From positions 16,447 to 80,446 of the forward strand of contig JAPLHV010000020.1 in NCBI GenBank assembly GCA_026389455.1: a stretch of 64,000 bases of DNA, written 5' to 3'. Made by a program: the position numbers and the translations under genes. Positions 11,613-61,437 of this stretch are shown piece by piece. Position 1 is the stretch's first letter. Every line of letters begins with the position of its first letter. Origin of the DNA: Coprothermobacterota bacterium (GTDB lineage: Bacteria > Caldisericota > JANLFM01). Below the pieces are notes generated by a model. The model did no database searches, was not told where the DNA came from, and saw only the letters and a program-made list of their open reading frames with translations.

Positions 11613-11737
11613 GGACTCGCTGCCGCGGGCTGATTACTATGCTGCCGCGGGCTGATTACTATGCTGCCGCGGGCTGATTACTATGCTGCCGCGGGCTGAT
11701 TACTATGCTGCCGCGGGCTGATTACTACGCTGCCGCG
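11613..11737 (+). repeat. Core-family array (CGCGGG variant), 22-bp period, 5 units plus a partial core
   Basis: GGACTC-(GCTGCCGCGGGCTGATTACTAT)x5 (the last unit ends ...TAC), then GCTGCCGCG. It begins 2 nt after the BON gene stop. Confidence 0.92.
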
Positions 11738-11745
11738 CATAGTGA

Positions 11746-11841
11746 GGGGACAGATTGAATCAGTATGGGGACAGATTTCAAATCTGTCCCCATACTGGAA
11801 GAATGTCCCCATACTGAATGAAGAGAGAGCGGAATCTGTCC
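11746..11841. repeat. Composite palindromic module: perfect 33-nt palindrome (11763-11795) nested in further GGACAGATT / AATCTGTCC and CAGTATGGGGA / TCCCCATACTG half-sites
   Basis: GTATGGGGACAGATTT-C-AAATCTGTCCCCATAC. There is an upstream GGGGACAGATTGAATCAGTAT, a downstream direct repeat TGTCCCCATACTG x2 (11786-11798 and 11804-11816), and AATCTGTCC again at 11833-11841. Confidence 0.88.
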
Positions 11842-11889
11842 AAATGCTGCGATTTGGCGAGGGAGAAGGGGGAGTGTTACCATCAATGG

Positions 11890-13194
11890 ATGAACCTACA
11901 GTTCTCCCGCTATCCTTACCCCGCGCTAGAAACGATCTGGGGCGAGGAAAATCAGCTCCAACTGTGGTTGCGCATCGAGCTGGCTGTATGCCAGGCACGA
12001 GTGGAGAATGGAGAGATCCCCGAGGAAGCCTGCCAACGCATCCTCAAGAGGGCTTCTTTTGGATCTGTTGGGGAGGTGCGGGCTATCGAGGAAAAAACTC
12101 AACATGACCTGGTAGCATTCCTTCAGGCGGTGGAAAGCAGGCTAGGTGAGGATTTTCGTTTCTTTCACCTCGGGCTGACCTCGCAAGACATCAAGGATAC
12201 GGGCTTCTCTCTGCAACTGAAAAAGTGTGGGGAAATCCTGCAAGGAGATCTTCTCGGCTTGATCCGCGTCTTCAGGCGACGAGCCCGCCAGCACAAATAC
12301 ACCTGGATGATCGGCCGTACCCACGGTATCCACGCCGAGCCGATTAGCTTTGGACTGGTCTTGCTGCGTTACCAAAAGACTTTCCAGCGGCATCTGCGAC
12401 GCCTGCGTGAAGCCACTTCTGAAGTGAGTGTGGGAAAGTTCTCTGGTCCGGTGGGCACCTACAACCTGGTCAGCCCCCAGATCGCCACCCGTGCCTGCGC
12501 TCTCCTCGGCTTGAAACCCGCTCACCGTTGTTCCCAGATCATCCCGCGCGACCTGTACGCCCGATTCTTTCAGACCCTTGCCCTCATCGCTGCCGGAGTG
12601 GAGGAAGTAGCGCTTGAGGTTCGTCACTTGCAGCGCAGCGAGGTGGGGGAGCTCTTCGAGCCGTTCACAGAGGGACAAGTCGGTTCCTCTGCCATGCCCC
12701 ACAAACGCAATCCGGTAGTAGCCGAGCGTCTTTGCGGCTTGGCCCGCATTGTCCGGGCGGATGCAGGTCCAGCCCTGGAGAACATTCCCAGTTGGCATGA
12801 GCGGGATATCAGTCACTCCTCGACCGAGCGCGTGATCGGTCCCCAAAGCACCGTTTTGCTGGGATACATGCTTCAGGCCCTTGCCTGGGTAATGGATGGG
12901 TTGGAGGTGAATCCCCGACGGATGGCGGAGAATATCGAACTCACCTGCGGTGCGATCTTCTCCCAGCCTCTCCTTTTGGCTTTGGTGGGTCATGGCATGC
13001 CGCGTTCCGAGGCCGGCCGCCTAGTTCAGAGGTTGGCCTTCCAGGCCATTCAACAAAAGATCCCTCTTCGCCAATTGCTGGAGAGAGAACCGCAAACCGC
13101 CGCATTGCCCCCTGTCGAGGTCGAGCGAATCTTCTGTTTCGATAACTTGCGGGAGCGCGTGGATTCCATCTTTGCCTTCACCGGAGAATTGTAA
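11890..13194 (+). CDS. purB: Adenylosuccinate lyase
   Basis: Fumarate-lyase signature GSSAMPHKRNP. The N-terminus MNLQFSRYPYPALETIWGEE is typical of PurB. The ATG at 11890 is preceded by GGGAGAAGGGGGAG. Confidence 0.92.
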   Translation: MNLQFSRYPYPALETIWGEENQLQLWLRIELAVCQARVENGEIPEEACQRILKRASFGSVGEVRAIEEKTQHDLVAFLQAVESRLGEDFRFFHLGLTSQDIKDTGFSLQLKKCGEILQGDLLGLIRVFRRRARQHKYTWMIGRTHGIHAEPISFGLVLLRYQKTFQRHLRRLREATSEVSVGKFSGPVGTYNLVSPQIATRACALLGLKPAHRCSQIIPRDLYARFFQTLALIAAGVEEVALEVRHLQRSEVGELFEPFTEGQVGSSAMPHKRNPVVAERLCGLARIVRADAGPALENIPSWHERDISHSSTERVIGPQSTVLLGYMLQALAWVMDGLEVNPRRMAENIELTCGAIFSQPLLLALVGHGMPRSEAGRLVQRLAFQAIQQKIPLRQLLEREPQTAALPPVEVERIFCFDNLRERVDSIFAFTGEL

Positions 13195-13197
13195 AGT

Positions 13198-13312
13198 GGA
13201 CACCCTGCCGGGGGCTGTCAAGATGCCGGGGGCTGTCAAGATGCCGGGGGCTGTCAAGATGCCGGGGGCTGTCAAGATGCCGGGGGCTGTCAAGATGCCG
13301 GGGGCTGGTTAC
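13198..13312 (+). repeat. Core-family array, 18-bp period, 5 units plus a terminal core (GCCGGGGGCTGTCAAGAT)
   Basis: GGACACCCT-(GCCGGGGGCTGTCAAGAT)x5-GCCGGGGGCT-GGTTAC, between the purB stop and the conserved argS body. Confidence 0.93.
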
Positions 13313-14956
13313 TTGCAAGCGCTGGGGGCTTCCCTGCGGGAGGCGCTTCAACAGCAATTTGGGCAAGATGCCGGGCCGGTTTCGTGGGAGGCGGCTCCCG
13401 CTTCCGTGCGAGAGGCGCGTCATGCCGACTTGACATGCCACTACGCTTTCCATGCGGCCAAGCTTTTTCACACCAACCCACGAGAGCTGGCCTACGCTCT
13501 GCAAGCGGCGATCCCAGATTCGCTGGGAGTGTCAACCGAGGTAGCCGGACCGGGTTTCCTCAATTTTAGCCTTGAAGCTGCAAGCGCCAAGGCAATTCTT
13601 CGCGATGTCTTCCAAAACCCCGCTGGTTACGGTCACTGGCAGCAGAAGCAAGCACGGCAAGTCAATGTGGAGTTTTGCTCAGCCAATCCAACTGGTCCCA
13701 TCCACCTGGGAAACGCACGTGGCGCTTGCTTTGGGTTTGTCGCTGCCAACTTGTTAGAAGCTTGGGGACACAAGGTTTCTCGTGAATACTACTTCGATGA
13801 CTTCGGCACTCAGGTGGACACTTTCGCCTTGTCCCTGCTTGCGCGTTACCGTGAAGCGCTGGGTCAAGAATCGGTCTTCCCAGAGGGTGGCTACCAGGGG
13901 GAGTATGTGCGTGAAATAGGCCAACGGGCTGCCCAGGGACACTTCGAGTGGGCTGGCCTTCCTTTCAAGAACCTGCTGGTCGAGCTACGGCGCTTCGGCC
14001 TACAGGAGATGGCCCGAGCTCACCGTCAAACTATGGATGGGCTGGGCATTCGTTTCGACACCTGGTTCTCTCAGAGCTCCTTGGAGCGAGATGGGTTCCT
14101 GCGACGCGCACAAGTTCAGCTGGAAGATGGAGGTTTTCTCTATCCGAGGGATGGGGCGCTCTGGTTCCGTTCCACAGCCTTTGGAGATGACAAAGATCGA
14201 GTGATGATCCGTTCCAACGGTGAGCCTACCTATTTTGCCTGGGACATCGCCTACAATTTGCACAAACGAGAGCGTGGTTTCGATTGGATTATCGACGTCT
14301 GGGGTCCGGATCACCACGGTTATGTGATGCGCAACAAGGCTGCTTTCCAAGCCCTTGGTTACAACGCCGACGATTTGACCTTGCTGATTTATCAATTGGT
14401 GCGGTGGTTCGAGCAAGGGGAAGAAGTTAAGATGTCCAAGCGCACGGGAGAATTTCTGACCCTCGATGAAGTCACTGAAGCGATCGGACGAGACGCCATA
14501 CTCTTCTTTCTACTTGATCGCAGCCCTGACTCTACCTTGGACTTTAACCTTGATCTAGCCAGACAGCAATCTCTTTCCAACCCGGTTTTCTATGTTCAGT
14601 ATGCTTACACGCGCGCTTTCTCTGTGGAGAGAGAAGCGATCCAAAGAGGTTTGGCGATCGGCGAAATCGATTTAGAGACCTGTCAGGCCTATGGGCCGGC
14701 CGAGCACCGTCTTCTAGCCAAAATTGCTCTTGCCCCAGAGGAGATCGCAACAGCCGCCGCCAGCTTGCTTCCGCATCGCCTAACCGGTTTCTCCAAAGAG
14801 CTGTCTGGGGATTTCCACTCTTTCTATCATGATCACCGCATCCTTGGAGTGGATGCTTCTTTGCAGCAGGCACGACTGAATCTAGTCTCAGCATTTCGCA
14901 TTACACTCGGTAATATATTAACCTTATTAGGGCTGAGCGCCCCGGAGACCATGTAA
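13295..14956 (+). CDS. argS: Arginine--tRNA ligase; start lies inside the repeat array (alternatives ATG 13223/13241/13259/13277 or TTG 13313)
   Basis: Class I motifs PIHLGNARG (HIGH-like) and KMSKRTG. Conserved N-terminal region ...HADLTCHYAFHAAKLF. Confidence 0.88.
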   Translation: MPGAGYLQALGASLREALQQQFGQDAGPVSWEAAPASVREARHADLTCHYAFHAAKLFHTNPRELAYALQAAIPDSLGVSTEVAGPGFLNFSLEAASAKAILRDVFQNPAGYGHWQQKQARQVNVEFCSANPTGPIHLGNARGACFGFVAANLLEAWGHKVSREYYFDDFGTQVDTFALSLLARYREALGQESVFPEGGYQGEYVREIGQRAAQGHFEWAGLPFKNLLVELRRFGLQEMARAHRQTMDGLGIRFDTWFSQSSLERDGFLRRAQVQLEDGGFLYPRDGALWFRSTAFGDDKDRVMIRSNGEPTYFAWDIAYNLHKRERGFDWIIDVWGPDHHGYVMRNKAAFQALGYNADDLTLLIYQLVRWFEQGEEVKMSKRTGEFLTLDEVTEAIGRDAILFFLLDRSPDSTLDFNLDLARQQSLSNPVFYVQYAYTRAFSVEREAIQRGLAIGEIDLETCQAYGPAEHRLLAKIALAPEEIATAAASLLPHRLTGFSKELSGDFHSFYHDHRILGVDASLQQARLNLVSAFRITLGNILTLLGLSAPETM

Positions 14957-14996
14957 ATAGCCCCCGGCGGCTTGATAGCCCCCGGCAGGGTGCTAT
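14957..14996 (-). repeat. Core-family array, reverse orientation, 18-bp period, 2 units
   Basis: ATAGCCCCCGGCGGCTTG-ATAGCCCCCGGCAGGGTG-CTAT, immediately after the argS stop. Confidence 0.9.
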
Positions 14997-15013: not shown

Positions 15014-16051
15014 ATGGCTAAGGGAAATCCGTTTGGGATACATCGTGTGGTGGAGCCGCTGGGAGTGATGCCGCAAGCAGCCAAGAGACTGGACAACGAT
15101 ATGGGATCGATCCGCGACAATGAGATTTTGGTGGACGTGGAGCGATTGAACATTGATGCCGCCAGTTTTACCCAATTGGAGGAGGAGGGAGAGCGCGATA
15201 CCACCAAAATCGCCGGTTTGATCAAAAAGATCGTCAAAGAGCGTGGCAAGATGCATAACCCGATCACAGGCTCAGGGGGCATGTTCATCGGCGCCGTGAG
15301 GCAGGTGGGCAAGGATCTGGCCAGTCGAGACCTGAAACCCGGCGACAAAATCGCTTCACTGGTCTCTCTCACCCTGACTCCTCTTGCCTTGAAACGGATC
15401 AAGAAAATCGACCTTGAGAAGGACCAAGTAGAGGTTGAAGGACAGGCCGTGCTCTTCGAATCAGGAGTCTACGCCAAGCTGCCCGCCGACCTTCCGGATC
15501 GCCTCTCCCTTGCCCTCCTCGATGTGGCGGGCGCTCCAGCCCAAACTGCGCGGCTGGTCAAGCCGGGCGACGCAGCGCTGGTGATCGGCGGTGGAGGCAA
15601 GTCGGGGCTTCTCTGTCTTTACGAAGCCAAAAAGCGGGCAGGGGTGACCGGCCGAGTGATCGGGTTGGGGCACAGCGCCTCCTCCACCGAACGCATACGC
15701 GAGAGCGGATTCGCTGACCTGGCTATCCAGGGGGATGCTTCAAAGCCACTGGAAGTGTACGAAAAAATACTCGAGGTAACGGATGGGAAACTGATGGACG
15801 TCACCATTAACTGTGTCAACGTTCCCGGCACTGAAATGGCCTCCATTATGAGCACCCGCGAGGGGGGTATTGTTTACTTTTTCACCATGGCTACCAGCTT
15901 CACTGCGGCTGCCCTGGGAGCTGAAGGCATCGGCAAGGACGTGAACATGATCATCGGCAATGGTTTTGCCAAGGGACATGATCGGATCGCCTTTGAGTTA
16001 ATGCGGGAGAGCCCGAAATTGAGAGCTCTCTTCGAAAGAATGTTCCTCTAA
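15014..16051 (+). CDS. kdd: L-erythro-3,5-diaminohexanoate dehydrogenase
   Basis: 345-aa ORF. The N-terminus GIHRVVEPLGVMPQAAKRLDNDM...NEILVDVERLNIDAASFTQL matches my recollection of Kdd. It sits directly upstream of kamA in the lysine-fermentation cluster. Confidence 0.78.
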   Translation: MAKGNPFGIHRVVEPLGVMPQAAKRLDNDMGSIRDNEILVDVERLNIDAASFTQLEEEGERDTTKIAGLIKKIVKERGKMHNPITGSGGMFIGAVRQVGKDLASRDLKPGDKIASLVSLTLTPLALKRIKKIDLEKDQVEVEGQAVLFESGVYAKLPADLPDRLSLALLDVAGAPAQTARLVKPGDAALVIGGGGKSGLLCLYEAKKRAGVTGRVIGLGHSASSTERIRESGFADLAIQGDASKPLEVYEKILEVTDGKLMDVTINCVNVPGTEMASIMSTREGGIVYFFTMATSFTAAALGAEGIGKDVNMIIGNGFAKGHDRIAFELMRESPKLRALFERMFL

Positions 16052-16066
16052 GGAAGATCGTCACTC

Positions 16067-17281
16067 ATGCGAACCTGGAACGAGATCAATCCTTGGCGTG
16101 ATGTATCTCCGGAAGATTGGGGAGATTGGCGCTGGCAACTGAAACATCGCCTGACCACGGTAGACGAATTGAAGGAAGTGATCCATCTCTCCTTGACTGA
16201 AGAGGAGGGGATACGACTTGCTTTGAAAAGATTCCGCATGGCCATCACCCCTTACTATGTGTCACTGATGGATCCAGACGATCCCAACTGCCCGGTTCGC
16301 TTGCAGGGCGTGCCTCAAGCACAAGAGACGGTTCACGGTCAATTCGACCAGCTCGATCCATTGCACGAGGACGCTGACTCGCCGGTCCCTGGGTTGACCC
16401 ACCGTTACCCCGACCGCGTTCTTTTCTTGGTTACCGACCAGTGCGCCATGTACTGCAGATATTGCACGCGCCGCCGTTTTGCCGGCGCCTACGATCGCTC
16501 GCTTTCCAAGGCGGAGTTAGATCGCTCGTTGGAGTACATCCGCCGGACCCCAGTGGTGCGTGACGTCCTCCTCTCAGGCGGGGACGCCCTCCTACTGGAG
16601 CAGGAGCTTCTGGAATTCGTCTTGGTTGAACTGAGGAAGATCCCACACGTAGAGATCATCCGCATCGGTTCCAGGGTTCCCGTGACTCTCCCTCAACGCA
16701 TCACCGATGATCTGGTGACGATGCTGCGGCGCTACCACCCCCTTTGGTTGAACACGCATTTCAATCACAGTCGAGAGATTACACCGGAATCGACCGAAGC
16801 CTGCGCTAAATTGGCAGATGCCGGCATTCCCCTCGGCAACCAGAGCGTATTGCTGCGCGGGATCAACGATTGCCCGACGGTCATGAAGAAATTGGTCCAT
16901 GATCTGCTGAAGATCCGTGTGCGCCCCTACTATGTATATCAGTGCGACCTCTCGGAAGGGATCAGCCACTTCCGCACCTCAGCGCTGCGGGGAATCGAGA
17001 TGGTGGAAGCCCTGCGGGGTCATACCACCGGCTTGGCTGTTCCGACTTTCGTGGTGGACGCTCCGGGCGGTGGAGGGAAAATCCCAGTCGCACCGAACTA
17101 CGTGCTCTCGATCTCTCCAGAGAACGTCGTCTTGAGGAACTACCAGGGCTTGGTATATTCCTATCCGGAACCCGAAGCGATGTCCCGTCATGATCCGGCC
17201 CATTGCCCCACCTGTAGCCGCGATGGATCCCCGCAGAACAGTGTGCTCGACGGCAAGATCGGGCGGAGAGGCAATCATTGA
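16067..17281 (+). CDS. kamA: L-lysine 2,3-aminomutase (radical SAM)
   Basis: CxxxCxxC cluster motif CAMYCRYCTRR and the KamA-family N-terminus WRWQLKHRLTTVDEL. Confidence 0.92.
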   Translation: MRTWNEINPWRDVSPEDWGDWRWQLKHRLTTVDELKEVIHLSLTEEEGIRLALKRFRMAITPYYVSLMDPDDPNCPVRLQGVPQAQETVHGQFDQLDPLHEDADSPVPGLTHRYPDRVLFLVTDQCAMYCRYCTRRRFAGAYDRSLSKAELDRSLEYIRRTPVVRDVLLSGGDALLLEQELLEFVLVELRKIPHVEIIRIGSRVPVTLPQRITDDLVTMLRRYHPLWLNTHFNHSREITPESTEACAKLADAGIPLGNQSVLLRGINDCPTVMKKLVHDLLKIRVRPYYVYQCDLSEGISHFRTSALRGIEMVEALRGHTTGLAVPTFVVDAPGGGGKIPVAPNYVLSISPENVVLRNYQGLVYSYPEPEAMSRHDPAHCPTCSRDGSPQNSVLDGKIGRRGNH

Positions 17282-18426
17282 AGCGTGGCAGTCAGCCCGC
17301 GGCAGCGTGGTATTTAATGGCGGAGCGCCTTTCCTGGCCGGCCGTGGTGAGCGTGGTGGGGACCGGACGAGGTTCCGGGAAGACGACTGTGGCCAACGTC
17401 TTGCTGGAGGCGGGGCTACAGAACAAGAAGAGACTCGGCGTGATCCCGGCAGGAAAAGGGGGGCATGCTACCCCACTGCGTCTGCCCAAGGATACCTTGG
17501 TGGCGCTGGCTAAGAACTGTGAGCTGACACACCACCTGGAGTTGCGCGAGGAGTTGGAGGCCAACACTCCCTGGGGCGAAGTGTTGATCGGGAGGGTTCG
17601 GCAAGCGAGCGAGGCTGTCATCGCCGGCCCGGTTACATTGAACGATACGATTGTCGCTGCGCAGCGCTTGATTGCCGAAGGGGCCGAACTGGTGGTGGTA
17701 GATGGCTCCTTGGGTCGCTTATCGGCGAGCGATTCACACCTTGCCCAGCGCTACATTCTGGCGATGGGCGCCGACCCTGTCGACCGCTGGGCTCGAAAGG
17801 AGCAGTTGGAGCGTTTTCACACCATCACTCTAATGCCCAAGGGCCATTGGGAAATTCCCTCTCCGTCAGACCCTCGAAAACGAGGGCAGCCTGCCTTTTG
17901 GAATAAAGACCGCTGGATTCCGATCCCTGAACTTAACCCGGGACTCCCTGCCGGGGGCTACCAAGCTGCCGCGTCCTATCAAGCTGGACAAGCCCCCGGC
18001 AGGGAGTCCTATCTAGCTGGACAAGCCCCCGGCAGGGAGTCCTATCAAGCTGGACAAGCCCCCGGCAGGGAGTCCTATCAAGCTGGACAAGCCCCCGGCA
18101 GGGAGTCCTATCAAGCTGCCGATCTTGCAACTGCGGAGGCGCTCTACTGGCCCGGCGCTTTCACCGATCGAGCGACTCGTCTGTTAGACCGCTTTCCGTC
18201 TCCCCTGGCTCTGTTGCTGGATCAACCTTGGCATCTTCTCGCCAGCCAGGAGCGCTGGCAAGCGCTCTGGCGGGGAGGATGGTCATTCTTCGCACGGGAG
18301 AAAGCAACCTTAGCCTGGGTAGCTGTTAACCCACGTGCGTTGGATGGGCATTTAGAGAGCCCTGAGAGGTTGCTGGAGGAAGCGCGGATCGCTTTCCAGA
18401 CAGTGGAGTGCCGGCAACTGCAGTGA
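17278..18426 (+). CDS. P-loop NTPase-like protein, possible aminomutase accessory factor; carries an in-frame 33-bp x4 repeat insertion
   Basis: Walker-A-like VGTGRGSGKTT. It lies between kamA and the MutS-like gene. Repeat-encoded (YQAGQAPGRES)x4 at aa 234-277. Confidence 0.45.
   Translation: MKRGSQPAAAWYLMAERLSWPAVVSVVGTGRGSGKTTVANVLLEAGLQNKKRLGVIPAGKGGHATPLRLPKDTLVALAKNCELTHHLELREELEANTPWGEVLIGRVRQASEAVIAGPVTLNDTIVAAQRLIAEGAELVVVDGSLGRLSASDSHLAQRYILAMGADPVDRWARKEQLERFHTITLMPKGHWEIPSPSDPRKRGQPAFWNKDRWIPIPELNPGLPAGGYQAAASYQAGQAPGRESYLAGQAPGRESYQAGQAPGRESYQAGQAPGRESYQAADLATAEALYWPGAFTDRATRLLDRFPSPLALLLDQPWHLLASQERWQALWRGGWSFFAREKATLAWVAVNPRALDGHLESPERLLEEARIAFQTVECRQLQ
17941..18121. repeat. 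Composite: one forward element (17941-17959) facing four reverse 33-bp units (17977-18108) plus a partial
   Basis: GGACTCCCTGCCGGGGGCT ... (TATCAAGCTGGACAAGCCCCCGGCAGGGAGTCC)x4 (unit 2 has TATCTAG) ... TATCAAGCTGCCG. The forward copy is the exact reverse complement of the last 19 nt of each unit. Confidence 0.92.
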
Positions 18427-20093
18427 GCCAGAAGAACACCCTGCCGGGGGCTAGTTACTTTCTTGACCTGGAGACACGAGCTGGCCTGGAATGGGATGAG
18501 TTCCTCGGGTTGGTAGAGACCTATTCCCCCCTCGGCAGGGAGGTCAAAGGGCGGATTCAGCCATACCGGATGGGGCAGGAAAGAGAACTAAGGGCCGAGC
18601 TCCGGCGAACCAAGGCCATGGCTTCCTTTTTACTGAATCACCCCTCCTGGGGGGCTGAACAAGCTGTCTTGCTGCACGGTATTAAAGATATCCGCCGATC
18701 ATTGCGCCAAGCCCGTGAGGGATTTGTACTGACAACAGTGGAGCTGTTCGAATGCAAACGACTGCTCCTGCTCTTTAAAAGATTGCGAAAAGGAATGGAA
18801 CAACCTGGACTTGCATTCCTGGCCTCTCTTCGGCCAAAGGGCTGTCCGGCTCTTCTCCGCCTTCTTTCTTGCGGGGGCCAAAGCCAAGAGACCTTTTCAT
18901 TGGTGGAGGCTTATTCCCCCAACCTTGGACAGATCCGCCATCGCAAGGAGGTGCTGGAGAAGTTGTTGTTGGCAGAACGGGCAGGGGTCAATGAACTGCT
19001 TCGCCAGGACGGACTTCGCCTCGGGCGGGATGAAGAGATCACCGTCCAGCGTGGGAGCCCAGGCGCTGACCGTTGTCAAGAGGTTGACCGTCTCGTTCTC
19101 TATAGCGAGAGTTCGCAAACGATAGTATTTCGCCTTCGGCCCTCCCCCAAGTCGCTAAAATGGAGGGAAGAGTTGGAAACCCTCGCAATCGCCGCAGAGA
19201 GGGAGGAAAAGACGATCCGGGCTAGGCTGGGAAAGGCTATCGGTGAACAGTCTGAGGGCTTGATCGAGGATTTGGAGCGAGTCGGCCGCTTCGACCTGTT
19301 ATTGGCCAAGAGTCAACTTGCCAACAGCTACGGTGGCGCGTTACCCCACCTTCTCAGCGCCTCCTCACCGGTCGTCTTTCGACTGGAAGAAGGACGCCAC
19401 TGGCCGATGAGCATGCGCATGTTGGAGCGGGGCATTCTCTTCCAACCCCTCAGCATCGAGCTTTTAAAAGGAGCTGCTTTGGTCAGTGGATCCAATATGA
19501 GCGGGAAAACAGTCCTTCTTAAGACCATTGGGTTGTCCTGTGCCATGGTCCAGCACGGTTTCCTGGCGCCGGCCCAGGCAATGGAATGGGCGCTGCGTGA
19601 TTTCCTCTTTTTTTCCACTCGGCGGCGCGAGCAGGACGGGCTCTCCGCCTTCGGAGCGGAGGTGACCGGGATCAAGCGGGTGTTGGACCACCACCGAAGG
19701 GCTGGCTTGCTCCTGATCGATGAGCTGGCTCGAGGAACCAATCCCACCGAGGGTTTTGCTATCAATGCCGCTCTCCTTCTGTATATCAATCAGATGCCGG
19801 GAAGTGCACTTTTTACTTCTCACTTCGAGGGCTTGGCTCAAGCGACCGGTGTGATGCACTGGCAGATGGCAGGACTTGGCGAGATTAGCCTTGAGCAGGT
19901 GCAAGCGCTCATGCGAGAGGGCGGGGAGGCTATCCTTTCCAGCCTGATGCAGTATCGCCTGGAGAGAGTCGAGCCCGAACGCCGGGTGCCCCATGATGCC
20001 CTCAAGATCGCCCTCCTATTGGGGCTGGAAGAAGAGGTGATAGAGTTGGCTAGAGGATTCACGGAAAATCTCCAACGCGGAGTTTCCCCTTGA
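18408..20093 (+). CDS. MutS-related ATPase (MutS domain V only), lysine-cluster associated
   Basis: Motifs GSNMSGKTVLLKTIG (Walker A), LLLIDELARGTNPTEG (Walker B) and TSHF. No obvious mismatch-binding N-terminal domain. Confidence 0.78.
   Translation: MPATAVSQKNTLPGASYFLDLETRAGLEWDEFLGLVETYSPLGREVKGRIQPYRMGQERELRAELRRTKAMASFLLNHPSWGAEQAVLLHGIKDIRRSLRQAREGFVLTTVELFECKRLLLLFKRLRKGMEQPGLAFLASLRPKGCPALLRLLSCGGQSQETFSLVEAYSPNLGQIRHRKEVLEKLLLAERAGVNELLRQDGLRLGRDEEITVQRGSPGADRCQEVDRLVLYSESSQTIVFRLRPSPKSLKWREELETLAIAAEREEKTIRARLGKAIGEQSEGLIEDLERVGRFDLLLAKSQLANSYGGALPHLLSASSPVVFRLEEGRHWPMSMRMLERGILFQPLSIELLKGAALVSGSNMSGKTVLLKTIGLSCAMVQHGFLAPAQAMEWALRDFLFFSTRRREQDGLSAFGAEVTGIKRVLDHHRRAGLLLIDELARGTNPTEGFAINAALLLYINQMPGSALFTSHFEGLAQATGVMHWQMAGLGEISLEQVQALMREGGEAILSSLMQYRLERVEPERRVPHDALKIALLLGLEEEVIELARGFTENLQRGVSP
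18433..18458 (+). repeat. Single core-family element
   Basis: AGAACACCCTGCCGGGGGCTAGTTAC, 7 nt after the upstream stop. A degenerate reverse copy, CCCCCCTCGGCAGGGAGGTC, lies at 18526-18545. Confidence 0.85.
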
Positions 20094-20166
20094 GCGAAGT
20101 GAAGGGTTCCTGAGGTGGAACATTGGGGAAAGACCGCGATCTCGCGACTGTGAGGGAAAAACAAGA

Positions 20167-21801
20167 TTGCCAATGAGACTGCCGATTCCCACTGAACAAG
20201 TACGCCATTGCCGGCAACTGGCCGCCTCCATCGCGGGGGGAGTGCAAGATGAGATCAGCCCACTCTCCACCGTCTCGGTTGAGCGTTCTCTCCTGCGTTT
20301 GGTCGGCATCGAGGGCAGCAATCAAGAGAGTGTGCCGTTGGTGAATTGTTTCATCGATCAGCTCACCGGGCAGCGAGTCTTGGAGGACGGTGCGCTCTAT
20401 TGGTTAAGCAACGCCATCTTGGCCACGGGGGAAACGCCCCAAGGCATCGCCGAACGCGTGGGCGCAAGGTCGCTTGACCTTGTGCGGCTGCCTCGCCAAC
20501 CTCGGCGAGCGATTGAAAACCACTGCCGAGGGATCGTTCAGGATGCCTTGGTCACTCTCTTAGGCAAACGGCGCCGGCGGCGCGAGATGGAGGAAAGCTT
20601 AGCCCGAACCACGTCCCCATGGCTGTATGTGATCGTCGCCACCGGAAACATTTACGACGACATCGAACAGGCCAAGGCAGCCGCAGAACAGGGCGCCGAT
20701 GCTGTGGCGGTAATCCGCTCTACAGCTCAGAGCTTGCTGGACTATGTCCCCGAAGGGATTACCACCGAGGGGTTCGGCGGCACTTACGCCACTGGAGCAA
20801 ACTTCCGCTTGATGCGAGGCGCCTTGGACGAGGCTTCCCGTCAATCCAATCGCTATGTCCGCCAGGTCAACTATTGCTCTGGCCTTTGCATGGCCGAAAT
20901 CGCCGCTTTGGGAGTTCTGGAAGGTTTAGACATCCTCGTCAATGACGCTCTCTACGGGATTCTCTTTCGTGACTTGAACATGATTCGCACCATGGTTGAT
21001 CAGCATTTTTCGCGCTACTTGTTGGGCCTTTTCGATACAACCATCGTCACTGGCGAGGACAACCTGATCAAGACCATCGATGCGTTCGAGGAATATCCAA
21101 TCGTGCTTGTCTCCCAGTTTATCAACGAGCAATTGGCCAAGAATGCCGGGATGCGTGAGGAACGGATCGGCCTGGGTCATGCTGCCGAGTTGGACCCTGC
21201 GCTAGAGGACAGTTTTCTCAAGGAGCTGGTTCAAGCGCAATTGGTGCGACAGCTTTTTCCCCGCTCACCGGTCAAATTCATGCCTCCTACCCGTTACAAG
21301 AGCGGGAACATTTTCTTCGCTCACGTCTTGGATACACTTTTCAACTTGGTAGCTGTTTGGACCGATCAGGCGATCGTCCTTTTAGGGATGCCGACCGAAG
21401 CGATTCATACTCCCTATGTGCAAGACCGCTACCTGAGCTTGGAGTCTGCCTTGCACGTTCGTCGCGCGGCCGGCTCGTTGGGGCAGGAAGTGCGACTTAA
21501 ACCAAATGGCCAAGGCGCCGCCCGCGCCTGCTGGCTTCTGGCTAGAACCGAGGAATCTCTTACCCGAATTGCCGAGGAGGGGTTGTGGAACTCCCTGGCC
21601 AGCGGCGCCTTCTCTGCCATCAAACGCGCCAGGAGGGGCGGGAGAGGCTATGATGGCGTCTTCCGCAAAGGGCACTTCTATTTGAACCCCTTCCTCGACC
21701 GCGAGGTGGTGCGGAGAGCCAGAAGAAAGGTGGCGCAGAACACCCTGCCGGGGGCTATCGAGCTGCCGGGGGCTATCGAGCTGCCGGGGGCTGTAGTGTG
21801 A
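20167..21801 (+). CDS. kamD: D-lysine (beta-lysine) 5,6-aminomutase alpha subunit
   Basis: 544-aa ORF immediately upstream of and overlapping the B12-binding beta subunit, of KamD-family size, in the kam cluster. The C-terminal tail NTLPGAIELPGAIELPGAVV is repeat-encoded. Confidence 0.82.
   Translation: MPMRLPIPTEQVRHCRQLAASIAGGVQDEISPLSTVSVERSLLRLVGIEGSNQESVPLVNCFIDQLTGQRVLEDGALYWLSNAILATGETPQGIAERVGARSLDLVRLPRQPRRAIENHCRGIVQDALVTLLGKRRRRREMEESLARTTSPWLYVIVATGNIYDDIEQAKAAAEQGADAVAVIRSTAQSLLDYVPEGITTEGFGGTYATGANFRLMRGALDEASRQSNRYVRQVNYCSGLCMAEIAALGVLEGLDILVNDALYGILFRDLNMIRTMVDQHFSRYLLGLFDTTIVTGEDNLIKTIDAFEEYPIVLVSQFINEQLAKNAGMREERIGLGHAAELDPALEDSFLKELVQAQLVRQLFPRSPVKFMPPTRYKSGNIFFAHVLDTLFNLVAVWTDQAIVLLGMPTEAIHTPYVQDRYLSLESALHVRRAAGSLGQEVRLKPNGQGAARACWLLARTEESLTRIAEEGLWNSLASGAFSAIKRARRGGRGYDGVFRKGHFYLNPFLDREVVRRARRKVAQNTLPGAIELPGAIELPGAVV
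21737..21797 (+). repeat. Core-family array, 18-bp period, 3 cores (CTGCCGGGGGCTATCGAG)
   Basis: AGAACACC-CTGCCGGGGGCTATCGAG-CTGCCGGGGGCTATCGAG-CTGCCGGGGGCT-GTAGTG; it ends at the kamD stop/kamE start. Confidence 0.92.
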
Positions 21802-22541
21802 GCGAAGAGCGGCCATTCATCCGTCCCTACGGTGACCGCCTCAATGATGGCGCCGTGCAATTGTCCTTTAGTCTTCCCATCTCTCTCTCCGCCAGGAGCC
21901 GGGAAGCTGCCAAGTCCATCGCTGGTCGCCTGGGGTTGGAACAGATCCGCTTGGTCTCTGCTCTCGACCTGGGGAACGGCTTCTCTTTTTACATCCTTTA
22001 CGGCGCGACCACGGTGGAAATCGATGACCAGGCTATCCATCTCACCGAGGTGGAACGGCCTTTATTGGATTTCTGGCGTATCAACCAGTTGTTGGAGTTT
22101 GAGTTGAAGAAACGGGTGACGGTGGTTGGCGCCACCATTGGAACTGATGCCCACACCGTTGGCCTGGACGCTATCCTCAACGCCAAAGGCTTCGGCGGGG
22201 AATCCGGTCTGGAGAGGTATCCTCAGTTCCGGGTGGTGAACCTAGGAGCTCAGGCGCCTCCGGATGAGGTTCTGGAAGCGGCTCGGGAACAGCGTGCCGA
22301 TGTTGTCCTCGTTTCGCAAGTGGTTACCCAAAGAAATGCCCATCTGGAGAATCTCTCTCTTCTCGCCGAGATGCTCGAGGCGGAGGGACTACGGCAGGAT
22401 CTTCTCTTGATCTGCGGAGGACCCTACATCGATAGCCAGGTCGCACTGGAGGTCGGCTTTGACGCCGCCTTCGGGCCAGGCACGACGCCGCTGGCGGTGG
22501 CCAGTCTAATCGTCGAAGAGCTCCTGCGGAAAGCCCAATGA
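21798..22541 (+). CDS. kamE: D-lysine (beta-lysine) 5,6-aminomutase beta subunit (B12-binding)
   Basis: Cobalamin-binding DxHxxG motif (GTDAHTVGLD). The GTG start overlaps the kamD stop (GTGTGA). Confidence 0.85.
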   Translation: MSEERPFIRPYGDRLNDGAVQLSFSLPISLSARSREAAKSIAGRLGLEQIRLVSALDLGNGFSFYILYGATTVEIDDQAIHLTEVERPLLDFWRINQLLEFELKKRVTVVGATIGTDAHTVGLDAILNAKGFGGESGLERYPQFRVVNLGAQAPPDEVLEAAREQRADVVLVSQVVTQRNAHLENLSLLAEMLEAEGLRQDLLLICGGPYIDSQVALEVGFDAAFGPGTTPLAVASLIVEELLRKAQ

Positions 22542-24301
22542 GCAAACTGATCTTTATCACCGGGGGGGTTGTCTCTGGGATCGGCAAGGGGATCCTGGCC
22601 GCTTCCATCGGCGCCCTGATTAAGGGGCGAGGGTATCGGGCGAGCATGATCAAGTGCGACCCGTACCTGAACGTGGACACAGAACACGCTGCCGCGGGCT
22701 TTCTAGCTGCCGCGGGCTTTCTAGCTGCCGCGGGCTTTCTAGCTGCCGCGGGCTTTCTAGCTGCCGCGGGCTTTCTAGCTGCCGCGGGCTTTCTAGCTAG
22801 CTGCCGCGGGCTTTCTAGCTGCCGCCCCTACCAGCATGGAGAAGTTTTCGTGTTGAAAGATGGCGCCGAAACAGACCTCGACTTGAGCCACGATGAGCGT
22901 TTCATCGATGAGGATCTGGACCAGTTGGCCAATGTCGCCTCAGGCCGGATCTACTCGGCTGTGATCGCCAAAGAACGGCGAGGCGAGTATTTGGGAGCCA
23001 CGGTGCAGTTGATTCCGCACGTGACCAACGAGATCATGGATGCCATCAAGGGCGCCCTCGAACATTCCAAAGCGGAAATATTGGTGGTGGAGATCGGCGG
23101 CACGGTGGGCGACATCGAAGGGCTCCCCTTCCTGGAGGCCATCCGCCAACTGCGTCGCAGCTTTCCGCCGGAAGATCTTCTCTACGTCCACACCACCCTC
23201 GTGCCATTCCTGGAAACCACACAAGAGGCAAAGACGAAACCGACCCGGCGCTCTGTCGCCGAGTTGCGCAGTATCGGCATCCAACCGAATGTTGTCGTTT
23301 GTCGATCGCGACGAGCGATTTCCCGTAAGCTGTGGGAGAAAGTGGCTCTCTTCTGCGACGTCGATCAAGAGCAGGTGATCTCTCTACCCGACTTGAACTC
23401 TATTTACCGGGTTCCTCTTTTTTTGCAGCGGGAGGGTTTCTCCGCCATCTTGGACCGTTTCCTCGGCGAAAGGCGTACTGCAGATCTGGCAATGTGGGAA
23501 CGGCTGGAACGTATCCTAGAGAGCCCGCATCCGCAGCTCCGCGTCGGCGTGGTGGGCAATTGCGTAGGGATGCGCGACACTTACATCTCGGTCAACGAAG
23601 CCCTGAAGCATGCTTCAATGGAAGAAAAGTTGGATCTCCAGTTGGTATGGGCGCCCTCAGAGAAGTTGACCTCCGGTCGGGTACGGGAGGGGAAGGACCT
23701 CTCTGGAATACTCGGCGAGCTGGATGGGATTGTAGTGCCGGGCGGTTTCGACCCCAGGGGGGTGGAAGGGAAAATCGCAGCAGTAGAATACGCTCGTTGC
23801 CAAGGTGTCCCGTATTTTGGCCTTTGCCTGGGATTACAGTGCGCGGTTATCGAATTCGCTCGCCACGTCTGCGGCTTAGAGGCGGCTAACAGCACGGAAT
23901 TCGATCCTCTCACCCCCTACCCAGTCATCGACCTTATGGCAAATCAACGCGGCTTGGAGGCCAAGGGCGGCGCCATGCGTCTAGGAGCATACCCGTGCGC
24001 TGTGCAAGAGGGTAGCGAGGCGTGGCGAGCCTTTGGCCAAGATATCGTCTGGGAGCGTCATCGCCACCGTTACGAATTGAACAATGAGTATCTTCACCTC
24101 TTGGAACAAGGAGGGTTGGTTGTCTCCGGACGATACGAAGAACTGGGCTTGGCCGAAATCATTGAACTTCCTGGACATCCATGGTTTCTTGGCACACAGT
24201 TTCACCCAGAGTTGACTTCACGACCAGGAAAACCGAATCCACTGTTTCACCAATTTATCAGAGCTTGCGCGAGGAGAGCTAGTTTTCGATGGAAAAACTG
24301 A
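22538..24301 (+). CDS. pyrG: CTP synthase, divergent, with a 147-nt repeat-derived in-frame insertion
   Basis: N-terminal FITGGVVSGIGKG, VEIGGTVGDIE, GATase GLCLGLQ and HRHRYE. The insertion at 22679-22825 replaces the expected GTMS segment. Confidence 0.85.
   Translation: MSKLIFITGGVVSGIGKGILAASIGALIKGRGYRASMIKCDPYLNVDTEHAAAGFLAAAGFLAAAGFLAAAGFLAAAGFLAAAGFLASCRGLSSCRPYQHGEVFVLKDGAETDLDLSHDERFIDEDLDQLANVASGRIYSAVIAKERRGEYLGATVQLIPHVTNEIMDAIKGALEHSKAEILVVEIGGTVGDIEGLPFLEAIRQLRRSFPPEDLLYVHTTLVPFLETTQEAKTKPTRRSVAELRSIGIQPNVVVCRSRRAISRKLWEKVALFCDVDQEQVISLPDLNSIYRVPLFLQREGFSAILDRFLGERRTADLAMWERLERILESPHPQLRVGVVGNCVGMRDTYISVNEALKHASMEEKLDLQLVWAPSEKLTSGRVREGKDLSGILGELDGIVVPGGFDPRGVEGKIAAVEYARCQGVPYFGLCLGLQCAVIEFARHVCGLEAANSTEFDPLTPYPVIDLMANQRGLEAKGGAMRLGAYPCAVQEGSEAWRAFGQDIVWERHRHRYELNNEYLHLLEQGGLVVSGRYEELGLAEIIELPGHPWFLGTQFHPELTSRPGKPNPLFHQFIRACARRASFRWKN
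22681..22825 (+). repeat. Core-family array (CGCGGG variant), 18-bp period, 7 units plus a 4-nt slip plus a partial core, inside pyrG
   Basis: AGAACAC-(GCTGCCGCGGGCTTTCTA)x6-GCTA-GCTGCCGCGGGCTTTCTA-GCTGCCGC. Confidence 0.93.
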
Positions 24302-25107
24302 TCATCACCGTCGCCATCTGTGGCGCGGAAGTAAGAAAAACGGATCACCCGGCACTGCCGGTGTCGGCGCAGGAATTGGGCGATGAGAGCTTTCGGGCTT
24401 ACCAGGCCGGCGCTTCAGTAGTCCACTTGCATGTGCGCAAGGATGACGGCTCGCCCACCCAGGACGCCATTGTATTCGCGCGGGCGATGGAAGCCATCCG
24501 CAGCCGTTGCGACATCATTATCCAGACTTCCACCGGAGGAGCGGTGGGGATGAGCGCGGAAGAACGATCGTCTCCCCTCACCCTCAACCCGGAGATGGCT
24601 ACTTTGACCTGCGGCACCGTCAATTTTGGGGAGGGCGTCTTCTGGAACCCGCCCGAATTAATTGAGAGATTCGCCCGCATGATGATGGAGCGAGGCATCA
24701 AGCCGGAGATTGAGGTTTTCGAGGCGGGAATGATTGCCAATGCCTTGCGGCTGGTAAAGAAGGGGATTCTCCACCTGCCCCTGCACTTCGATTTCGTCAT
24801 GGGGGTTCCGGGTGGGATCACGGCCTCAGCCCGCGATCTGGTCTATCTGGTGGAAAGCCTTCCCGATGGCTGCACCTGGACGGTAGCTGGGATAGGCCGG
24901 GCAGAACTGCAACTGGCTGCCGTGGCCATCGTGATGGGCGGAAATGTTCGCTGCGGTTTCGAGGACAACCTCTTCTACCGCAAAGGCGAGCCTGCCACCC
25001 ACAACAGCCAACTCGTAGATCGGATTGCCAGGCTATCGAAGGAGCTAGGGCGCGAGGTGGCTGAACCGGACGAAGCTCGGCTCATCCTGGGGATCTCGAA
25101 AAAGTAG
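24289..25107 (+). CDS. kce: 3-keto-5-aminohexanoate cleavage enzyme (BKACE family)
   Basis: 272-aa ORF with the BKACE/DUF849-type N-terminus LIITVAICGAEVRKTDHPALPVS...VVHLHVR, in the lysine-cluster context. Confidence 0.82.
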   Translation: MEKLIITVAICGAEVRKTDHPALPVSAQELGDESFRAYQAGASVVHLHVRKDDGSPTQDAIVFARAMEAIRSRCDIIIQTSTGGAVGMSAEERSSPLTLNPEMATLTCGTVNFGEGVFWNPPELIERFARMMMERGIKPEIEVFEAGMIANALRLVKKGILHLPLHFDFVMGVPGGITASARDLVYLVESLPDGCTWTVAGIGRAELQLAAVAIVMGGNVRCGFEDNLFYRKGEPATHNSQLVDRIARLSKELGREVAEPDEARLILGISKK

Positions 25108-29270: not shown

Positions 29271-30464
29271 ATGGAGGTGGAATTGCTTGCCTGGACACCG
29301 CAGCCGGAGAGAACATGCGCTGCCGCGGCCAGGCTCTGCACAAGTGATAGCTCCCCCCTCCAAGCGATTTGGCAGGGATTGAGCGATGAGCGGGTAAAGA
29401 GCGCCATTGCACAGGTGTTAAAAAACGGCCACCTTTCCATCTTAGAACATGCTAGTTTTACTTTTGCGGCCGTCGGTCTTTCACGAGCATGCACTCATCA
29501 ACTGGTACGGCATCGCGTCGCTTCTTTCGCCCAGCAGAGTCAACGCCATCTCCCAGTGCGTGACAGAACAGCCTGCGGCAGCATGTCTACTTGCGGCAGC
29601 ATGTCTACTTGCGGCAGCATGTCTCGTTTCGTGACTCCACCAAGCTTGCGTGGTCACGATCAAGCCCAACGGTTGTTTCGGGAAACCTACTCTCGATCTC
29701 AAGACGTCTATCAGCAGTTACTCATTCTTGGCATTCCGTCGGAGGATGCACGTTACATACTGCCGCAAGCTTGCTCCACCCGAATTCTTTTCACCATGAA
29801 TGCCCGCGAATTGCGCCATTTCCTCCGGATGCGTTGCTGCGAGAAAGCTCAATGGGAAATCCGCGGCCTGGCCTGGCTGGTTCGTCAGCGCCTACTGCGG
29901 GTCGCCCCTGGTTTATTCGGCGATTCCGGCCCAACCTGCTTCGAGACAGATTGTCCCGAGCAGGATTACGTTTGCCGGCGCGAGAAGTCAGCTTTCTTCC
30001 AAAGTTCTTATCACTTGTTTCGTGAACGCTTGCAGAGGCTCGGCTTGATTCTAGCGGAACGTCGCTTGCCTGCAGCCGGTTTGCACCCCTTAGCGACTTC
30101 CAAGATGCTTGGATGCCGGCAGGAGGAGCTGCTTCGCCCAATCTTGATCGAGTGCGGAGAGCGATTCGCTCTGTTGCTCTCTGCGAAGCCCGAGACCGCC
30201 TTGGCGAAAGTTAACGTGCGAACAAACGAAGAGTGGCGTCTCGCCGCTGCGGCTCGATACCGCAAGCTTGGCATCTCTCCTCTAGCCTGCCCCTGGCTCT
30301 TTACAAACGGTGAGGAACAGGTTACTGCTTTCTGGGATAGCAGCTTGGACTGCCAAGGCACACTTGTTTTTAACTTGGCTTCGGCTTGGCGTTTCGCCAC
30401 CCTGCCACCTCGATGCATCGAAGAAATAGCGTCTTGCAGTGGATACACAATCGAGAAGGTGTAA
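29271..30464 (+). CDS. thyX: Flavin-dependent thymidylate synthase ThyX with an in-frame repeat insertion and a ~170-aa C-terminal extension of unknown function
   Basis: ThyX motif [13 protein letters not shown]. (CGSMST)x3 is encoded by the array at 29564-29624. 397 aa against roughly 220-250 typical. Confidence 0.8.
29564..29624 (-). repeat. Core-family array (GCAAG/GCAGG variant), 18-bp period, 3 units, inside thyX
   Basis: The plus strand reads CAGAACA-GCCTGCGGCAGCATGTCT-ACTTGCGGCAGCATGTCT-ACTTGCGGCAGCATGTCT. The reverse complement has the unit AGACATGCTGCCGCAAGT. Confidence 0.9.
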
Positions 30465-59669: not shown

Positions 59670-60661
59670 GCTTGGAAGAGCAGACAGCCCCCGGCAGGGA
59701 GTTTCATCTATTCAGCGGGAATGCCAATCTAGCCCTGGCCCAAGAGGTCGCCGATTTTCTCCATATTCCTCTCGGCGCCATGGAAGCATCGCGCTTCCCG
59801 GACGGCGAGATCCATGTCCGTTGCCAAGAGAGCGTGCGCGGACAGGATGTCTTCCTCCTCCAGCCGACTTGCCCACCCGTCAACGAGAACTTGGTGGAAT
59901 TGCTGGTCATGATCGACTCGCTGAAACGAGCGTCGGCCAGGAGCATCACCGCCATCGTGCCATACTACGGCTACGGTCGCCAGGATCGCAAGACCAAGCC
60001 GCGAGAGCCGATCACTGCTAAATTGGTGGCCGACTTGTTGACGGTGGCCGGAGCCAATCGAGTGGTGGCTGTTGACCTTCATGCCGGCCAGATCCAGGGC
60101 TTCTTCAACATCCCCTTCGACAATCTGACAGCCAGCCTGCTCTTTCAAGACTACTTCCTTAAGAAAAAAGGTCTGCAAGAGGCAGTAGTGGTCTCACCCG
60201 ACATCGGCCGGGTTCCCCGAACCCGCATTCTCTCGGATAAACTGAACTACTCCCTGGCCATCGTTGAGAAGCGTCGCATGGGCCCTGACCGAGTGGAAAC
60301 GATGGGAGTGATCGGGGACGTCAGCGGGAAGGTGGCAGTCCTGGTGGACGACATGATTACCACCGGGAAGACGCTGCTCTCTGCTGCCGACACGATCTAT
60401 AAGGCCGGAGCGCGGCAGATCATCGCTGCTTGCACCCACGCGGTCCTTTGTGGCGACTCGGTGAAAATGCTTGCCGATTCTCCAATTGCCGAATTAGTGG
60501 TGACCAATACTGTTCCCATCCCCCCTGAAAAGATGATCGACAAGATTAAGGTCCTCTCCGTGGCGCCGCTCTTGGGGGAAGGGATCACCCGCATCCGCGA
60601 GAACCGTTCCATCTCAGACCTCTTCAGCTACGGTTCATCCGAACAAATCGCCCTGTATTAG
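59666..60661 (+). CDS. prs: Ribose-phosphate pyrophosphokinase
   Basis: HLFSGNANLALAQEVA, the PRPP-binding VLVDDMITTGKTL, and the RBS GAGGAGAGG. N-terminal codons 8-12 (APGRE) are encoded by a reverse-oriented repeat element. Confidence 0.93.
   Translation: MSLEEQTAPGREFHLFSGNANLALAQEVADFLHIPLGAMEASRFPDGEIHVRCQESVRGQDVFLLQPTCPPVNENLVELLVMIDSLKRASARSITAIVPYYGYGRQDRKTKPREPITAKLVADLLTVAGANRVVAVDLHAGQIQGFFNIPFDNLTASLLFQDYFLKKKGLQEAVVVSPDIGRVPRTRILSDKLNYSLAIVEKRRMGPDRVETMGVIGDVSGKVAVLVDDMITTGKTLLSAADTIYKAGARQIIAACTHAVLCGDSVKMLADSPIAELVVTNTVPIPPEKMIDKIKVLSVAPLLGEGITRIRENRSISDLFSYGSSEQIALY
59684..59705 (-). repeat. Single reverse-oriented element inside the prs 5' end
   Basis: ACAGCCCCCGGCAGGGAGTTTC, inverted relative to 59590-59633. 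Confidence 0.85.
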
Positions 60662-61319: not shown

Positions 61320-61437
61320 GGACTCCCTGCCGGGGGCTGTAGTCTCCCTGCCGGGGGCTGTCAAGATGCCGGGGGCTGTCAAGATGCCGGGGGCTGTCAA
61401 GATGCCGGGGGCTGTCAAGATGCCGGGGGCTAGACTG
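61320..61437 (+). repeat. Core-family array: 2 cores 21 bp apart, then 18-bp units (GCCGGGGGCTGTCAAGAT) x3 plus a terminal core
   Basis: GGACTCC-CTGCCGGGGGCTGTAGTCTCC-CTGCCGGGGGCTGTCAAGAT-(GCCGGGGGCTGTCAAGAT)x3-GCCGGGGGCT-AGACTG. The unit is identical to the argS array. Confidence 0.93.

Follow-up and report, generated by a model that had tools for sequence, protein, structure and literature searches.

The purB-argS junction in the window (the whole stretch of DNA analysed, 64,000 nt) contains a tandem array in which every unit carries a G5 run and an in-frame ATG, and it raises the question of whether argS takes its translation start from this array. An earlier note on this DNA had proposed that it does.

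An in-frame insertion behind the ancestral argS start

TRF reported a period of 18, 5.7 copies and 100% matches for positions 13206-13307 (score 204), and direct reading of the sequence confirmed that an 18-bp unit array is present upstream of the ArgRS body as the earlier note had described. The five ATGs share the argS frame, a GGGGG run ends 8 nt before each of them, and translation of the ORF identified the array as the sole source of in-frame ATGs ahead of the ArgRS body (Table 1). The array had been placed between the purB stop codon and the ArgRS N-terminus. It does lie downstream of the stop, but just inside the ancestral argS ORF rather than outside it.

Short-read contigs break at arrays of this kind, which would be in keeping with an assembly or sequencing artefact. 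However, the 3′ junction of the array (...gtcaagatgccgggggctggttacttgc) was identical in seven of the eight Logan contigs displayed, each from a separate sequencing run, and because this junction recurs across independent runs we conclude that the argS array is not an assembly artefact. Members of the same repeat family are also found in independent MAGs from different studies, at shared as well as differing sites, and we give the artefact practically no credence. Contigs from at least eight runs encode an identical neighbouring KDD protein and begin within the argS array; the runs in which this population occurs include SRR20698650/51, ERR11260138/42 and ERR153022xx.

The eight Logan contigs that represent the window's own population (L036-L043) are about 4-4.7 kb long; most begin in or near the argS array, and six of the eight terminate in the array at 17948-18118. 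Arrays of the family fragment short-read assemblies. One of these contigs, L041, fuses the array to the argS site at 13364..13375, representing either a 74-nt deletion variant or an artefact. At 13361-13375 the relatives read ggtGGAGATGCtGGa and the window reads gggCAAGATGCCGGG, giving a 12-nt identity to the unit junction in another reading frame; judged from the sequence, these substitutions look like a short-patch templated mutation beside the array.

Ten related purB/argS loci (L001, L002, L003, L020, L030, L031, L032 and L033-35) were compared with the window. ArgRS identity to the window was 94% for L001, 92% for L002, 87% for L003, 88% for L020 and 69% for the L033-35 clade; L020 was the single close locus added by a metagenome scan for ArgRS relatives. 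The array was absent in all ten loci, in which the empty site has the consensus ...GGAGAAxTxTAA(A) GTG/ATG TAY TAY YTN SAA.... Alignment with these empty sites showed that the argS element consists of 110 nt replacing an ancestral 'TA', so that the ORF has become 108 nt (36 codons) longer and the array separates codon 1 from codons 3-4 of the ancestral gene. The codon homologous to position 13196 is GTG in L001, L002, L003, L030, L031 and L032 and ATG in L020 and L033-35. Because the start codon switches between GTG and ATG at this position while the codon corresponding to TTG 13313 is CTT in three loci, we assign the ancestral start to 13196. The annotated ArgRS N-termini in the clade are MYYLQALG, MHYLQALG and MYYLESLG, and homologues at 51-55% identity start with MYFLE.. 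or MYVLEQ.., such that the pattern M-[YH]-[YFV]-L holds down to 51%. Thus the comparison with array-free relatives that had been suggested for this locus placed the start at the 13196 position and made the TTG an internal Leu codon.

The sequence just upstream of this start is also retained. A GGAG motif (13183-13186) lies 8-9 nt before GTG 13196, and its predicted duplex with a generic anti-SD, assumed for this organism, has an energy of -6.6 kcal/mol at a spacing of 8. In L033-35, purB is gone from the locus, but its last ten codons survive in a 46-codon ORF in the 140 nt ahead of argS; this ORF ends in DSVFTFSGEV* (purB: DSIFAFTGEL*), keeps the GGAGAA, and has a TAA that abuts the argS ATG. 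This retention suggests that the end of the upstream ORF, with its GGAG, may belong to the argS initiation region.

In the earlier note, TTG 13313 was the only alternative to the array ATGs; this overlooked the in-frame GTG at 13196-13198 and the GGAG ahead of it. The claim that argS needs the array ATGs does not hold, since relatives start at a GTG or ATG homologous to 13196 without any array. We also considered the possibility that argS starts at TTG 13313, with the terminal G5 as its SD sequence and the array as an untranslated purB-argS spacer. This G5 ends 8 nt before the TTG, with a predicted energy of -8.6 kcal/mol for the assumed anti-SD, and the match to Pfam Arg_tRNA_synt_N opens five codons past the TTG, at profile position 5, so that the domain model begins just beyond it. 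However, the homologous codon is CTT in L033-35 and therefore is not their start, the annotated relatives all start three codons upstream at GTG or ATG, and TTG is a weak start codon preceded in the same frame by five better ATG sites and the GTG. Initiation at the TTG is very unlikely. From these comparisons we conclude that the argS array is an insertion behind the ancestral start, in frame, and that it belongs to a large repeat family.

Table 1. Features of the purB-argS junction and sites of the repeat family in the window.
Feature	Position	Strand	Remarks
Intergenic array, 22-nt period	11619..11737	+	Starts right after the stop of a BON-domain gene
GGAGAA, SD-like, in the last purB codons (G-E)	13183..13188	+	Kept in all relatives
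purB stop codon, TAA	13192..13194	+	purB ORF matches Lyase_1 and ADSL_C
GTG, ancestral argS start	13196..13198	+	In frame, 1 nt past the purB stop
Inserted element	13199..13308	+	Head GACACC, then core and spacer units, then terminal core
Head hairpin GACACCC-UGCC-GGGG(C)UGUC	13199..13219	+	Begins 1 nt past the GTG
Five identical units GCCGGGGGCTGTCAAGAT	13207..13296	+	argS frame reads (P G A V K M)x5
Five in-frame ATGs	13223, 13241, 13259, 13277, 13295 (span 13223..13297)	+	G5 run 8 nt before each
Terminal core of the argS array	13297-13306		
TTG, codon 4 (Leu) of ancestral ArgRS	13313..13315	+	CTT in L033-35
Conserved ArgRS body	13313..14956	+	dN/dS 0.12-0.14 versus relatives (normal)
CAAGATGCCGGG, native argS codons	13364..13375	+	Window-specific substitutions; 12-nt match to the array unit junction
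Intergenic two-copy array	14959..14988	-	Directly after the argS stop; net +36 nt; common to L002
orf17278, solo element	17283..17317	-	Net +33 nt; two codons past a TTG start that overlaps the kamA stop
mutS2-like gene, solo element	18431..18460	+	Net +21 nt; two codons past GTG
kamD C-terminal tail array	21745..21792	+	Net +57; replaces AAGGAGG of kamE
pyrG array, 7-8 units	22677..22826	+	Net +132 nt, in frame; replaces AGTMS of conserved DAGTMSP
prs, solo element	59678..59697	-	Net +18 nt; six codons past ATG
pth array	61320..61433	+	Clean +114 nt in frame after TTG-AAx; ATG unit and MPGAVK frame as in argS

A dispersed family with a 12-nt core

The core CTGCCGSGGGCT, with one mismatch allowed, occurs 61 times in the window versus 1.59 expected, at about 18 loci and on both strands. 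Each array consists of the 12-nt core and a spacer of about 6 nt, with a purine-rich head (..RGRAC(A/T)C(C/G)) before the first copy. Units within one array are near-identical and each array has its own spacer; the spacers are mutually related (RTCAAG, ATCGAG, TTCTAG, GTCGTG, RTTTAC). In addition to 18 nt, TRF detected periods of 19, 22, 23 and 33 nt, and the periods that are not multiples of 3 (19, 22 and 23) are confined to intergenic arrays. The last two bases of the head covary with core positions 7-8 (CC..GG, CG..CG and TG..CA), providing modest evidence that a 3-bp stem around a UGCC loop is maintained, with folds that were not significant.

Thirteen of the 18 loci are in coding sequence, and six of the 18 are found among the ~10 opening codons of a gene, an approximately ten-fold enrichment for the first ten codons (P about 6e-6 to 2e-5). 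In the eight cases within or next to coding DNA for which the inserted length was determined, it was always a multiple of 3. The encoded peptide varies with frame and strand (LPGA, AAAG, CRGL, APGR and SPRQ); five of the eight sense coding copies read LPGA, which was not a significant reading-frame preference. The host genes argS, pth, prs, pyrG, thyX, mfd, FTCD_C and kamD remain open across the element. At each insertion site that was compared, 2-22 nt of native sequence was replaced, and no target-site duplication was seen at any pair of filled and empty sites.

The insertions occupy both ends of genes as well as their interiors. Besides the N-terminal sites in Table 1, an array occupies codons 9-32 of a DUF1385 gene, a glmU-like gene carries one in its C-terminal tail, and further arrays or solo copies are within the FTCD_C protein, orf17278 and mfd. 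The kamD array is shared with L002 (18231-18296) and absent in L001, L003, L020, L030 and L033. The GTG of kamE overlaps the TGA of kamD and has the last G5 of the array 7 nt upstream; kamE is still under purifying selection (dN/dS 0.05-0.07). In pth, the relatives start with TTG AAA CTG ATC (LKLIVGLGNPG), and the last ATG of the pth array would give MPGARLIVGLGNPG, a near-native Pth N-terminus.

The pyrG array interrupts a CTP synthase motif, DAGTM(S/R)P, that reads NVDAGTMRPYEHGEVF in the Thermus thermophilus structure 1vcm. About 60 nt past the array (about 22880-22895), GHYERF has become SHDERF by three clustered substitutions, which recreate the 10-mer CACGATGAGC lost at the insertion site. 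We considered pyrG as a decaying pseudogene and rejected this, as its dN/dS of 0.09 equals that between relatives and the gene is otherwise intact. In thyX, a three-unit antisense array at 29570-29624 (18 residues) is in the loop after the RHR..S..SQR(Y/H) motif. The ThyX ORF (29271-30464) extends to 397 aa and overlaps the thymidine kinase gene.

Intergenic copies were found directly after a stop codon (site 41) and in the infB-rbfA spacer, in addition to those in Table 1. At 11619..11737 the unit type and copy number vary among relatives (5.4, 2, 1 and 0 copies). Adjacent to this site, upstream of purB, is a further insertion of about 110 nt (11738-11850) relative to L030, L001 and L002 that is present in L031 and L032. 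It contains repeated GGGGACAGAT and GTCCCCATACTG motifs and the hairpin ggggacagatttcaaatctgtcccc with no Rfam match, and is possibly a leader structure or a further small mobile element. The gene content around these sites is ordinary and gives a metabolic hint: positions 15014-25107 contain a lysine-fermentation set (kdd-like, kamA, the kamD/kamE aminomutase and BKACE/kce, with a thiolase further on) interleaved with argS, pyrG and the mutS2-like gene. The closest MAG carries a Coprothermobacterota label and comes from Lac Pavin sediment.

Across the syntenic region of about 22 kb, 24 cores were counted in the window, 7 in L002, 2 each in L001 and L020, 1 in L033-35 and 0 in L030; distant relatives had none. 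Because core load, unit type and copy number differ among relatives, we conclude that the family is dynamic and that its expansion in the lineage of the window is recent. Searches for a relationship to described sequences gave no match. Neither transposase nor reverse transcriptase domains were found among the window ORFs scanned against Pfam, and Rfam at gathering thresholds identified only four tRNAs in the window. A literature search for the core 12-mers on either strand returned only unrelated matches, and a scan of viral contigs with a two-copy array returned none. A protein search with a concatemer of the array-encoded peptide had no match at E <= 0.01, probably as a result of low complexity. 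IS200/IS605-like TTAC/TCAA cleavage is no more than a lead; TTAC is present at the end of some units and TCAA within some, but the flanks are inconsistent and no transposase was found among the scanned ORFs.

Probable initiation of argS at the GTG and possible use of the array ATGs

We consider it probable on balance that the array reflects a recent, lineage-specific insertion and local expansion behind GTG 13196, and that argS is still mainly GTG-initiated. The 18-nt family element inserted directly 3′ of the GTG with the frame kept. Ribosomes would reach the GTG by way of the GGAG in the 3′ end of purB, and also by terminating at the TAA one base ahead of it and reinitiating. Read-through of the array would add a Pro/Gly-rich extension of 36 residues, DTLPGAVKM(PGAVKM)4PGAG, ahead of YLQALG. 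The G5/ATG modules probably arose by a single C-to-A change in the consensus CTG (Leu to Met) that was subsequently amplified, and the array ATGs may act as extra internal starts, making some N-terminal heterogeneity likely.

In the window, the ancestral GTG, its SD-like GGAG and the single nucleotide between the purB stop and the GTG have all been kept. According to a review of translational coupling (PMC12548453), efficiency is highest when stop and start are close together, and in one phage gene pair the ribosome scanning from the upstream stop took the nearest start codon. We favour GTG initiation with read-through because the GTG, GGAG and 1-nt gap are unchanged and because of these findings on coupling. 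The array ATGs are probably by-products and not necessary argS starts. Internal initiation from them is physically plausible, and mixed N-termini are likely in view of the results below.

Alternatively, the array ATGs, with their G5 runs as SD-like sequences, could be the main argS starts, producing ArgRS with 0-4 extra PGAVKM repeats and the N-termini MPGAVK or MPGAGYLQALGASLR. In a compensatory version, the insertion would have harmed the old GTG and the ATG variant would have been selected for restoring initiation near the mature N-terminus. We regard this pair of readings, taken jointly, as possible but rather unlikely. For all five ATGs, the predicted duplex of the G5 with the generic anti-SD is -8.6 kcal/mol at a spacing of 7-8 nt, compared with -6.6 kcal/mol for the GGAG and -9.4 kcal/mol for the canonical SD of the next gene, and ATG is the better start codon. 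The anti-SD used in these calculations was assumed, and the assumption is supported by canonical AGGAGG-type SD sequences upstream of kdd and prs, as well as upstream of kamE in relatives. The insertion also raises the predicted cost of unfolding the old starts, which is 12.9 kcal/mol at the argS GTG versus 5.8-11.0 in relatives, as the head hairpin adds to it, and 10.5 versus 3.6 kcal/mol at the old pth start. However, unfolding is predicted to cost 13.5-18.5 kcal/mol at the array ATGs, which gives them no advantage over the GTG in this respect.

The distribution of the ATG unit bears on the same question. This variant is restricted to the argS and pth arrays, both of which are sense, N-terminal and in frame, and the chance of both ATG arrays occupying such positions is P = 0.02 if the two arrays are independent. 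Confinement to N-terminal arrays would fit selection for new starts. The near-native Pth N-terminus available from the last pth ATG and the situation at kamE, where a G5 core occupies the former AAGGAGG and the gene stays constrained, also speak for the array ATGs as main starts. On the other hand, the two ATG arrays may be copies of each other, in which case the P value is inapplicable. The units are 100% identical, implying recent expansion and little time for selection, the ancestral GTG, SD and 1-nt stop-start spacing are untouched, and relatives function without any array ATG. Of the proposal that the array donates initiation signals, the modules themselves stand, with an SD-like run and an ATG in each. 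The idea of a dedicated device that the gene needs does not, as the array is the insertion of a dispersed repeat and the relatives do without it; most probably argS does not depend on the modules either.

RNA structure was a further candidate for a function of the array. The argS head hairpin has a predicted energy of -10.7 kcal/mol with z = -1.0, which is not significant, and the z-scores for unit and head hairpins ranged from -1.0 to +0.7. The array as a structured RNA was rejected; the 176-nt array region folds worse than shuffled sequences (z = +2.15) and the unit hairpins are not significant. It had also been suggested that an RNA G-quadruplex (G4) is conceivable, in which case the six sense-strand G5 tracts would throttle argS initiation or elongation and the array would be a regulatory structure. 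The quadruplex model of ViennaRNA does allow it, giving a minimum-energy structure with a five-layer G4 at -73.3 kcal/mol, versus -66.3 kcal/mol when the quadruplex term is left out, with parameters that are extrapolated at such loop size. Canonical RNA G4s have at least four G-tracts joined by short loops of about 1-7 nt. The six tracts of the argS array are separated by 13-nt loops, far beyond this range, and the pairing-only fold is weaker than that of shuffled sequence. Arrays of the family occur on either strand and in any context, so the G-tracts come with a repeat whose spread does not depend on function. Because the loops are non-canonical and the tracts are a family property on either strand, a regulatory G4 is highly improbable, although the folding model permits one.

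Significance and comparison with known repeats

For argS itself the insertion has limited consequences: this essential synthetase probably bears a disordered N-terminal tag of 36 residues or occurs with mixed N-termini. The notable finding is the repeat family rather than the argS ladder. Within an uncultured lineage, a repeat with a core of 12 nt and a period of 18 nt has become widespread, and close relatives differ in load from 0 to 24 cores per 22 kb. Its insertions nearly always keep the frame, and some even interrupt motifs that are conserved in pyrG and thyX. Should the positional preference stem from how the element inserts, and not from selection alone, no smaller element targeting gene starts would be known, and the family would also offer a natural experiment on initiation regions that tolerate or recruit foreign SD/ATG modules. 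In practice, the arrays break short-read assemblies and mislead start-codon calling.

We also entertained a more speculative and improbable reading that joins these aspects. The CTGCCGSGGGCT family would be an undescribed ultra-small mobile or templated-insertion element, with a minimal unit of 18-20 nt, that prefers the first codons and stop-codon flanks of operon genes, perhaps through microhomology of its purine-rich head to SD-like DNA. It would bring along its own ribosome-binding G5 and, in one subfamily, an ATG as well, so that insertions would rescue themselves, and the ladders at argS and pth would be replacement starts favoured by selection, not accidents.

Several known classes of repeat share features with the family. 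CRISPR arrays combine repeats of 23-55 nt with unique spacers that are similar in length to the repeats, whereas here a 12-nt core alternates with identical 6-nt spacers. REPs are extragenic imperfect palindromes of 20-40 nt that form a stable hairpin. The likeness to REP/BIME/REPIN sequences, which are mobilised by RAYT, lies in very short, GC-rich and abundant units with a 5′ head and a small stem-loop, and in a load that varies between strains. However, the family has a stem of only 3-4 bp (head stem CSC-UGCC-GSG plus a short outer stem), 13 of its 18 loci are coding rather than extragenic, its units are arranged head-to-tail with an 18-nt period, and no Y1 transposase was found among the Pfam-scanned ORFs of the 64 kb. 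Like coding minisatellites or VNTRs, the arrays have a unit that is a multiple of 3, change copy number without frameshift and are homogenised internally. VNTRs stay within a single gene, whereas the 64 kb contain about 18 loci of the family, and solo copies have newly entered sites that are empty in relatives.

The closer resemblances are to MIRU and to the Rickettsia palindromic elements (RPEs). MIRUs are described as short tandem repeats that enter operons at start codons and leave expression almost unaffected (Supply et al. 1997, summarised in PMC12548453). The family shares with them short, dispersed and often tandem repeats of variable copy number at operon gene junctions or start codons (six of 18 loci; 5.4, 2, 1 or 0 copies), with a downstream gene that stays translated. 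The MIRU unit is 40-100 bp compared with 18 nt here, and it contains a small ORF that ends in a stop overlapping the start of the next gene (-4 spacing), whereas the argS array is stop-free and fused in frame. The family is also found inside genes and after stop codons, and in an unrelated lineage. RPEs are in-frame insertions in housekeeping genes (PMC10969869), and the family likewise behaves as selfish repeats placed in frame in unrelated housekeeping genes and translated with the protein. RPEs are palindromic single insertions of about 100-150 bp with a conserved peptide, in contrast to a core of 12 nt, solo insertions of 18-33 nt net, tandem amplification and no long palindrome. Thus the family resembles MIRU and RPE but, according to the literature search with the core and Rfam, fits no described family, and we regard it as a variant of the known dispersed short repeats that are tolerated in frame.
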